From NCBI RefSeq assembly GCF_000026545.1, contig NC_011601.1: a stretch of 64,000 nt of DNA; one strand, written 5' to 3'. Origin of the DNA: Escherichia coli O127:H6 str. E2348/69 (GTDB lineage: Bacteria > Pseudomonadota > Gammaproteobacteria > Enterobacterales > Enterobacteriaceae). This document shows, piece after piece, positions 18,001 through 21,000 of the stretch (position 1 is its first letter; each line of letters begins with the position of its first letter). Position numbers: made by a program.

Positions 18001-21000
18001 CAATATCTGCAGGTCGTCTGACACAGATGATAAGTGTTCTGAATCGGGTGTTAACCCGTAACGCTGCCGGAGAAATGACGGAAGAATGGGTGTCATGCGG
18101 GAAAATTCATGCGGATATCCGTGGCAGGAGCAGCCGGGAGCGGATGCAGTCCGGTGCGGAAATGGCGCAGGCGGAAATCCGCATCTGGGTGCGCGGTCAG
18201 TCCGGTCGGGAAATCACGGCAGCGTCACGACTTCATGTGCTGAGTGGTCCATGGCGTGACCGGATCCTGAACGTTGTCGGGCTGCCCGTGCCGGATGCGA
18301 CCGGCGGGCGTCTGGAAATTCTCTGTCGGCTGGGAGGGGAAAAATGATCGAAACCCTGCTGGATTTTTCGGGGCTGGAGGACATCAGCCGCGATTTGCAG
18401 CTTCTGAGTGGTGCGGAAAATAACCGGGTGCTGCGTGAGGCAACCCGTGCGGGTGCGAATGTGCTGAAAGAAGAAGTGGTGTCACGGGCACCGGTACGCA
18501 GGGGAAAACTGCGCCGCAATGTGGTGATCCTTTCCCGGCGCTCCCGCGATGGCGGGATGGAATCCGGTGTCCATATCCGTGGTGTTAATCCGGACACCGG
18601 TAACAGCGATAACACTATGAAGGCGGATAACCCGCGCAATGCTTTCTACTGGCGGTTTGTGGAAATGGGGACTGTGAATATGCCACCGCACCCGTTTGTG
18701 CGCCCGGCGTTTGATGTGCGCAGTGAACAGGCAGCTCAGGTGGCGATTGCGCGGATGAACCGGGCCATTGATGAGGTACTGAGACGATGACGGAGGCGGA
18801 TTTGTATCCTCATCTGGCGCATCTTGCCGGCGGGCAGGTGTACCCGTATGTGGTCCCCCTGCTGGATGGCAGGCCGTCGGTGGCGCTTCCGTGGGTGGTT
18901 TTCAGCCTGATTTCATCGGTGTCAGCGGACGTGATGGGCGGGCAGGCGGAGTCCTCAGTGTCGGTGCAGATAGACGTTTATGCCGGGACTGTGACGCAGG
19001 CGCGTCAGATACGTCAGGACGCCCGTGAAGCCATAATGCTGCTGGCCCCGGGATCCGTCAGTGAAATGCAGGACTATATTCCGGAAAACCGCTGTTACCG
19101 TGCAACCCTGGAGTTTCAGGTCACGGTGTGACTTTTTCTTTTTTCTACAAAACCATACCCCGCCGCGTGCGGGTTTTTTATTATCAGGCGGCAGAATGTC
19201 TGCTTTGTATGAACGCTCACAGCTGACGCAGGTGATGATTTCATCTGCCCCGGCGACTGCTGAAACTATGGATAAGGCGGAATATCTGCGCCTGGATTGC
19301 ACCATCAAGGAAGTCCAGTTCACCGCCGGTCAGAAACAGGATATTGATGTGACCACGCTCTGCTCCACCGAGCAGGAGAACATCAACGGTCTGGGGGCGT
19401 CGTCTGAGATTTCCATGTCGGGTAATTTTTATCTGAATCAGGCCCAGAACGCCCTGCGTGATGCCTATGACAATGACGCGTTGTATGCGTTTAAGGTGCT
19501 GTTTCCGTCCGGTAAGGGCTTTAAGTTCCTGGCGGAAGTGCGTCAGCACACCTGGTCATCCGGTACCAACGGCGTGGTGGCAGCAACGTTTTCACTGCGT
19601 ATGAAAGGCAAACCGGTGTCCTTTGTGGTACCGCTGGCGTTTGTGAAAAATCTGGATAAAACACTTACCGTGAATACAGGTGCGCTGCTGACAATGTCAG
19701 TCAGTGCCAACGGGGGAACGCCGCCGTATAAATACGCCTGGAAGAAGGATGGTCAGCCGGTTGACGGGCAGACGACAGACACCTTCAGTAAGCCAGGTGC
19801 GCAGTCCGCTGATGCGGGGAAATATACCTGCGTGGTGACCGATTCGGCAGAGAAAGCACAGAGTGTGACGTCTGTTGAATGCACCGTGACAGTGAGCGCA
19901 GCCGCCGGATAAGGGGATGGGTCATCATGAAAAAGGATCTGAAAACGCTGGCGCTGGCCAGACTGTCAGGGTTTCGTCATAAAACGGTGAAGGTGCCGGA
20001 ATGGGGTAATGTCAGCGTGGTGCTGCGGGAGCCTTCGGCAGAGGCCTGGTATCTGTGGCAGGAAGTGCTCAATGGTGATGGAGAGGATGACGATACCCTG
20101 TCGGTGGTGGCGAAAACCCGCCGTAACCTGGAAGCGGATGTGACGCTGTTCTGCGATGTCCTGTGTGATACGGATCTGCAGCGGGTGTTCGCTCCGGACG
20201 ACCGTGAGCAGGTGCTGGCCGTCTATGGTCCGGTACATGCCCGGTTGCTGCGTCAGGCACTGGAACTGATCGCTGATGCAGAGTCGGCCAGAAAAAAGTA
20301 GCCCGCCCGGAAATTCGCTTTCTGATGCGACTTGCGCTCCGTCTGGGGCGCACCTTATCCGAACTGCGGCACAGCCTGAGTGTGAGCGAGGCGATGATGT
20401 GGATGGAGTTCGACAGGGTATCCCCGCTGGGTGATGAGCGCGGGGATATCCGTAATGCACAGATCGTGAAAGCGGTTTTTGGGGCACAGGGGATGAATGT
20501 TGCACTGAAGGACGCCATGCTCTGCTGGGGCGAGGATGAGGATAAGCCGGAGGTGGATCCGTTTGCGGCGCTGGAAGACGCGCTGAGCTTTGCAGCACAG
20601 TCATGAATGATGAGAACCGCTGAGGCGGTTTTTTTACGCCCGGAGAAAGGTGAATGGCGACGTTACGTGAACTGATTATCAAAATTTCGGCAAATTCGCA
20701 GTCATTCCAGTCGGAGATCCAGCGGGCTTCCCGCATGGGCAGTGAATATTACCGGACCCTGCAGAATGGCGGGCGTCAGGCTGCCGCAGTCGCCCGGGAG
20801 CAGCGACGCGCCCTGGCTGAGCTGAACAGCCAGTTGACGGAAATCCGCGCTTCAGCTGCCGGAACGGCGGGGGCATTTGCAGGTGCCTTTGCCACCGGAC
20901 ACCTGATTTCTCTGGCCGATGAATGGAGTTCCGTGAATGCCCGACTGAAACAGGCGTCGCAGTCATCCGATGAATTTTCGTCATCACAGAAAGTGCTGAT

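Follow-up and report, generated by a model that had tools for sequence, protein, structure and literature searches.

The heptamer A_AAA_AAG at 20292-20298 (+) is very probably a programmed -1 frameshift site, which produces a low level of a 226-aa G-T fusion beside the 124-aa tail chaperone G. The site lies in a lambdoid prophage of E. coli O127:H6 E2348/69, within the window, the whole 64,000-nucleotide stretch of DNA that was analysed. The frameshift site is already known, and its activity has been measured on an identical sequence. This analysis demonstrated how the two frames are arranged, which domain families they encode and that the site is conserved. We infer that the shift is ribosomal rather than transcriptional. 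The features around the slip site were as follows.

19196..19912, plus strand: major tail protein (V), whose C-terminal part is an Ig-like domain (phrog_158; Pfam families of Ig domains; RefSeq 'major tail subunit')
19927..20301, plus strand: G, tail assembly chaperone of the HK97 gp13 type, 124 aa (PF06222, phrog_344, WP_000710949.1)
20277..20298, plus strand: the only 22 nt that are open both in the frame of G and in the -1 (T) frame
20292..20298, plus strand: slippery heptamer A_AAA_AAG, composed of the last base of an AGA codon and the two final sense codons of G
20299..20301, plus strand: UAG, the stop codon of G, immediately 3' of the heptamer; in the -1 frame this junction is read as GUA (Val) once the shift has occurred
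20298..20606, plus strand: -1-frame T segment, 102 codons and a stop (translation; PF06223)
20325..20606, plus strand: T in the database annotation, where it is a CDS of its own starting at an internal ATG (RefSeq WP_001234278.1, 'phage tail assembly protein T')
20654..23896, plus strand: tail tape-measure protein (H), 1080 aa (PF06120, PF20155, PF09718, TIGR01541; RefSeq)

The zero frame of G started at ATG 19927, with an alternative in-frame ATG upstream at 19879, and the C-terminus of G was ...AESARKK. The sequence AAAAAAG was read at 20292-20298 (+) in the register A_AAA_AAG of the G ORF (context gcc aga aaa aag tag). The preliminary description had placed A AAA AAG directly before the G stop TAG, and the heptamer is indeed followed at once by TAG at 20299-20301. 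The final -1-frame stop before the slip site was TGA 20274-20276, and the heptamer formed the final 7 of the 22 nt open in both frames, ending where the G stop begins at 20299. Because both frames are open only there, any productive shift is confined to 20277-20298. The -1 frame had also been described as open into the ORF at 20325..20606. It was found open from 20277 to 20603, across the annotated T ATG at 20325 and the 26 nt intervening between the G stop and that ATG, and it was closed by TGA 20604-20606, 102 codons beyond the slip. A -1-frame stop between 20298 and 20325 was looked for, and none was present.

G matched PF06222 Phage_TAC_1 over residues 1-124 of 124 (E 1.7e-61, 206 bits, gathering cutoff 25). 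The -1 segment matched PF06223 Phage_tail_T, the minor tail protein T family (E 1.5e-18, 67.4 bits, gathering cutoff 25.9), and the predicted 226-aa fusion, composed of 124 aa from G and 102 aa from the -1 frame, matched both families when translated conceptually. In PHROGs, G belonged to phrog_344 (tail assembly chaperone) and T to phrog_337. The first half of the 224-position profile phrog_14766 matched G and its second half matched T; phrog_14766 is therefore a family of joined G-T proteins. None of the NCBIfam models matched G or T. The gene order was major tail protein, G, T and tape measure. The stretch thus holds an ORF pair between the major tail and tape-measure genes, a -1 overlap, an in-register heptamer and conservation in diverged relatives, which are the marks of a G-T frameshift. 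The earlier proposal of a programmed -1 site for G/GT is supported by the gene order, the domains, the frame geometry, the conservation and a published reporter assay.

In that assay, Antonov et al. 2013 (NAR 41:6514, PMC3711429, Table S2) measured 7% ± 0.79 frameshifting in E. coli for a 75-nt insert in a GST-insert-MBP reporter. The 75-nt insert was base-for-base identical to 20272-20346 of the window, although the measurement was made in a reporter construct and not in the prophage. A second insert, G_GGA_AAG_CCG_TAA, with its site as in phage mEp390, gave 6% ± 0.61 frameshifting in E. coli (PMC3711429). The same study assigned 41 frameshifted genes similar to an HK97 protein to a 'phage tail assembly chaperone' cluster (cluster 862991913, frameshift ID 15618692).

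The possibility of a chance heptamer with no biological role, and of two neighbouring ORFs unrelated to each other, was considered. The heptamer itself is common: 34 copies of AAAAAAG occurred on both strands of the window against 12.4 ± 3.2 expected from dinucleotide-preserving shuffles, nearly threefold more, and no shuffle reached 34. The register, position and -1 extension of the 20292 site on a real gene were nevertheless unique. The window contained 688 canonical X_XXY_YYZ heptamers, 75 of which had at least 100 open codons upstream, and in 7 of the 75 the -1 frame also ran at least 50 codons beyond the zero-frame stop. Six of the seven were in minus-strand ORFs overlapping annotated plus-strand phage genes, and the 20292 site was the sole plus-strand case; all annotated phage genes in the slip-site region are on the plus strand. 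The 20292 site is the only one of the seven in a real gene, and its rarity lies in the combination of register, position and -1 extension, not in the heptamer alone. The site was also kept at the same position down to 33-36% identity of G, and 7% frameshifting was measured on the identical cassette (PMC3711429). The chance reading is excluded. A second in-register A_AAA_AAG was observed at 31387-31393, inside a 425-aa tail-fibre gene (30788-32065). The -1 frame there closes after 7 codons, so the sole effect of slippage at that place would be a small share of truncated product.

Conservation was investigated across 99 loci, taken from phage records and from contigs of IMG/VR and representing 23 distinct sequence contexts. 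A shift site of the A_AAG type was found at the homologous place, the end of G, in the 99 loci and 23 contexts, with the site of Burkholderia phage KS9 ending in A_AAA. The types of site are given below, for most of them with the identity of G to the window protein.

Window type, 62 loci, G 88-100% identical: A_AAA_AAG, TAG adjacent
Evi / PhiR49_2 type, G 67-69%: A_AAA_AAG, TAG adjacent
Morganella IME1369_02, G 56%: A_AAA_AAG, TAG adjacent
Salmonella FSL SP-016 and SW-37, G 57-59%: G_GGA_AAG, TAG adjacent
Klebsiella phages, G 50-55%: A_GCA_AAG, TAA adjacent
HK97 / LAU1: G_GAA_AAG, G stop 6 codons later
Cronobacter ENT39118: G_GAA_AAG, G stop 1 codon later
mEp390, G 46%: G_GGA_AAG, G stop 1 codon later
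Burkholderia phages, G 33-36%: A_AAA_AAG (phi644-2) or A_AAA_AAA (KS9), G stop 10-11 codons later

The heptamer was invariant in the 62 close relatives while the neighbouring codons varied, and AAAGTAGC was invariant in the DNA alignment of the relatives, again with variable flanking codons. The two open frames of the Evi, SP-016 and Klebsiella types shared exactly the 7 nt of the shift site, so a productive shift elsewhere is impossible in those phages. Conceptual fusions from five lineages (52-66% identity) aligned across the G-T junction without gaps, and the fusion residues K124, V125, P128, F132, L133 and M134 were invariant in these five lineages. The -1 peptide K-V-x-x-P-x-x-x-F-L-M was conserved, and part of it is encoded upstream of the T ATG, in a stretch that is not translated in the G frame. 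The T ATG at 20325 encodes the conserved internal Met of F-L-M.

These results bear on the alternative that T is made independently from ATG 20325 and that the heptamer is incidental. T is annotated as a separate CDS in RefSeq and GenBank, and ATG 20325 is conserved, both of which speak for an independent start. The conservation is also that of an internal Met in F-L-M, however, and it extends to the -1-frame residues upstream of the ATG. The pairing of the Shine-Dalgarno (SD) region with the anti-SD before ATG 20325 was weak, at -3.5 kcal/mol compared with -5.8 to -12.8 kcal/mol for 14 of the 16 other starts checked; only the remaining two, the K and I starts, were lower, with no SD/anti-SD pairing. 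The -1 frame opens exactly at the heptamer in three lineages, a fusion product was observed from the identical sequence in the published reporter (PMC3711429), and lambda T is made only as GT (PMC5009743). Independent initiation of T is therefore highly improbable, and the G-T fusion remains the preferred reading.

Several single-ORF G-T proteins from the protein database (P0001, P0002, P0004 and P0118) were considered as evidence of expression and were rejected, being indel variants or miscalled ORFs. The metagenome protein P0001 reads ...RKK|EIRFLM, as expected from an 11-nt deletion fusing G to T in frame; no free G would therefore be made from it. Other junction variants, natural or introduced in assembly, were locus L088 with A7 instead of A8 and locus L066 with a 1-nt deletion that truncates G. 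In locus L010, T was truncated and joined to a 319-codon -1 ORF.

Transcriptional slippage could lead to the same protein. RNA polymerase would insert one extra A into the A6 run, and the minority mRNA, translated normally, would give the G-T fusion. The site is a homopolymer run, Evi-type relatives have A8, and the run length varies among assemblies (L088, P0004). The product would be identical (R-K-K-V-A), so neither the published reporter assay nor the mass spectrometry proposed earlier can separate the two mechanisms. Runs of more than seven A have been implicated in transcriptional realignment (PMC3711429), whereas the run here is A6. Relatives with only three A, in G_GGA_AAG or A_GCA_AAG, keep the same architecture; the conserved feature is thus A_AAG in a fixed register, and not the length of the run. 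A conserved A or T homopolymer of at least about 8 nt, which characterizes programmed transcriptional realignment (threshold from PMC3711429), was not found, with A6 here and GGGAAAG or GCAAAG in relatives. Slippage of the polymerase is accordingly considered very unlikely as the source of the fusion.

The known shift properties of such heptamers agree with slippage of the ribosome. Of the heptamers in E. coli, A_AAA_AAG is the one most prone to shifting, and the single tRNA-Lys forms stronger pairing with AAA than with AAG (PMC5009743). G_GGA_AAG is also highly shift-prone, and a bare A_AAG with 5' codons that do not re-pair is used naturally, as in G_CGA_AAG of IS1222 (PMC5009743). In HK97 and ENT39118 (G_GAA_AAG) and in the Klebsiella phages (A_GCA_AAG), the P-site tRNA re-pairs poorly after the shift. 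The spectrum of shift-prone sites in PMC5009743 matches the variants in the G/T relatives, in which only A_AAG is invariant.

By ribosomal slippage, expression of the pair would proceed as follows. Most ribosomes on G would terminate at UAG 20299 and release the 124-aa chaperone. A few per cent would slip back one base on A_AAA_AAG, with tRNA-Lys on AAA in the P site and on AAG in the A site, both of which could re-pair with AAA AAA. The shifted ribosomes would then read GUA GCC CGC... in the -1 frame and end at 20606, giving the 226-aa fusion. By analogy with lambda and HK97, the G and G-T proteins would act in tail assembly: the G parts would cover the tape-measure protein, the rare fusion would use its T domain to recruit the major tail protein, and a fixed G:GT ratio would be needed for assembly.

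The programmed -1 frameshift of lambda G/G-T was reportedly described by Levin, Hendrix and Casjens in 1993 and by Xu, Hendrix and Duda in 2004, 2013 and 2014, and Xu et al. in 2004 are said to have defined a class of G/GT tail assembly chaperones with a programmed -1 frameshift in tailed phages. The pair in the window had been likened to the lambda G-T arrangement. This holds for the architecture and the T domain but not for the family of G, which is that of HK97 gp13 (PF06222) and not that of lambda G (PF06894). Lambda has the same architecture and gene neighbourhood, and a low-percentage -1 shift on a heptamer ending in A_AAG. Lambda T belongs to the same family as T here, with a PF06223 match of E 2.1e-14; this profile is the only link between the two T domains, as a BLASTP comparison of T here with lambda T found nothing. 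Lambda G matched PF06894 (E 9.2e-62), whereas G here matched PF06222, gave no match to PF06894 and had no similarity to lambda G in BLASTP (E 6.5). Lambda shifts on G_GGA_AAG and has its stop five codons further on, whereas the stop is adjacent here, and lambda T has 144 aa compared with 102 aa here. In lambda, the G:GT ratio is about 30:1, and G and GT are required for tail assembly and absent from virions (PMC5009743).

Among the closest known systems was HK97 gp13/gp14, which likewise matched PF06222 and PF06223 and likewise lies between the major tail and tape-measure genes. HK97 G was 63% identical to G here, and the fusion was 61% identical. The GenBank record of HK97 describes gp14 as 'translated due to a -1 frameshift'. 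HK97 differs in its G_GAA_AAG heptamer, with imperfect re-pairing of the P-site codon, in a G stop six codons downstream, and in a moron gene (gp15) between T and H. Gp11/gp12 of Burkholderia phage KS9 are annotated as a joined -1 frameshift product. The G/T site of the window works like lambda G/GT and belongs to the HK97 gp13/gp14 family, not to the lambda gpG family.

E. coli dnaX contains the identical heptamer A_AAA_AAG, decoded by the single tRNA-Lys (PMC5009743). The dnaX site differs in having an upstream SD-like stimulator and a close downstream stem-loop, an efficiency of about 50%, and a shorter shifted product; here, no stimulator was found at comparable spacing, the efficiency was about 7%, and the shift lengthens the protein. 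The 122 nt downstream of the heptamer folded no better than shuffled sequences (z -0.35). The folds of 13 relatives shared no stimulatory structure at 5-9 nt spacing, and no conserved SD-like motif was found upstream of the heptamer among the relatives compared. A cassette of the dnaX type, which combines an SD-like motif some 10 nt before the heptamer with a stem-loop 5-9 nt after it, is thus absent at 20292. The sole structure common to the folds of the 13 relatives was located farther downstream.

20333..20352, plus strand: 8-bp GC-rich hairpin in the T codons L-A-L-R-L-G-R-T (-14.3 kcal/mol, z -2.5)

This hairpin starts 34 nt after the heptamer and lies within the conserved peptide LALR(L/M)GRT, with no covariation available. 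Four types (window, HK97, Morganella and SP-016) have it with no nucleotide changes; the stem is weaker in Evi-type phages and disrupted in those of the Klebsiella type. The hairpin is probably not a canonical stimulator, and its role is uncertain. The identity of synonymous codons in eight lineages was highest in the GT coding sequence over 20284-20351, at 0.65 compared with 0.44 overall. Column permutation gave p of about 0.07 with 19-codon windows and about 0.17 with 7-codon windows, so the peak is no more than suggestive.

A stop directly after AAG was found in five lineages (window, Evi, Morganella, SP-016/SW-37 and Klebsiella types) but not in HK97, mEp390, lambda or the Burkholderia phages. 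The reporter values of 7% with and 6% without adjacency argue against a large effect of the adjacent stop on shifting, though the heptamers of the two inserts also differ. The adjacent stop and the conserved stretch to the hairpin might together exert a non-canonical control of G:GT, for example through slippage while the ribosome awaits RF1 at UAG, but this is doubtful. Under such control, the G:GT ratio would respond to the efficiency of termination.

G and T were separate CDSs in RefSeq and in the two GenBank records of the Stx-phage type that were inspected, and no joined GT product was present in the examined RefSeq and GenBank records of the window phage type. What remains is this annotation gap, the missing joined GT CDS, and a minor point on the adjacent stop and the conserved stretch downstream. 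Of 5426 complete E. coli genomes, 1246 contained a match to the region 19000-21500, in as many as 7 copies each, and the G/T pair also occurs in many Stx-converting phages. The importance of the site is mainly one of annotation. Biologically, it adds one case to the conserved frameshifts of tail chaperones and poses no new question.

Some other features of the prophage were observed. A terminator-like hairpin at 20612-20635, GAGAACCGC-UGAG-GCGGUUUUU (-10.8 kcal/mol), is situated between the stop of T and the start of the tape-measure gene and overlaps seven consecutive U; it was absent from the output of the promoter and terminator scan. In HK97, a putative terminator is annotated immediately before the tape-measure gene. 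Several tail-fibre fragments and a broken integrase were found between the tail genes and the effector genes. The type III effector genes of the prophage are nleA, nleH1-2 and nleF, within 33581-38270. An espO remnant lies at about 39437-39634, and the prophage region ends near an ompW remnant beside the trp operon (40545-40685).

An IS3-type -1 frameshift was considered for the IS copies at 3111-4484 and 41557-42930 and was rejected: the elements are IS4-like ISEc13 with a single 457-aa transposase, and the plus-strand ORFs are antisense. The two ISEc13 copies are inverted, on the minus strand at 3111-4484 and on the plus strand at 41557-42930, and bracket the late region of the prophage and its effector cargo. 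One copy follows closely on Q and two phage tRNA genes; the second adjoins trpA.
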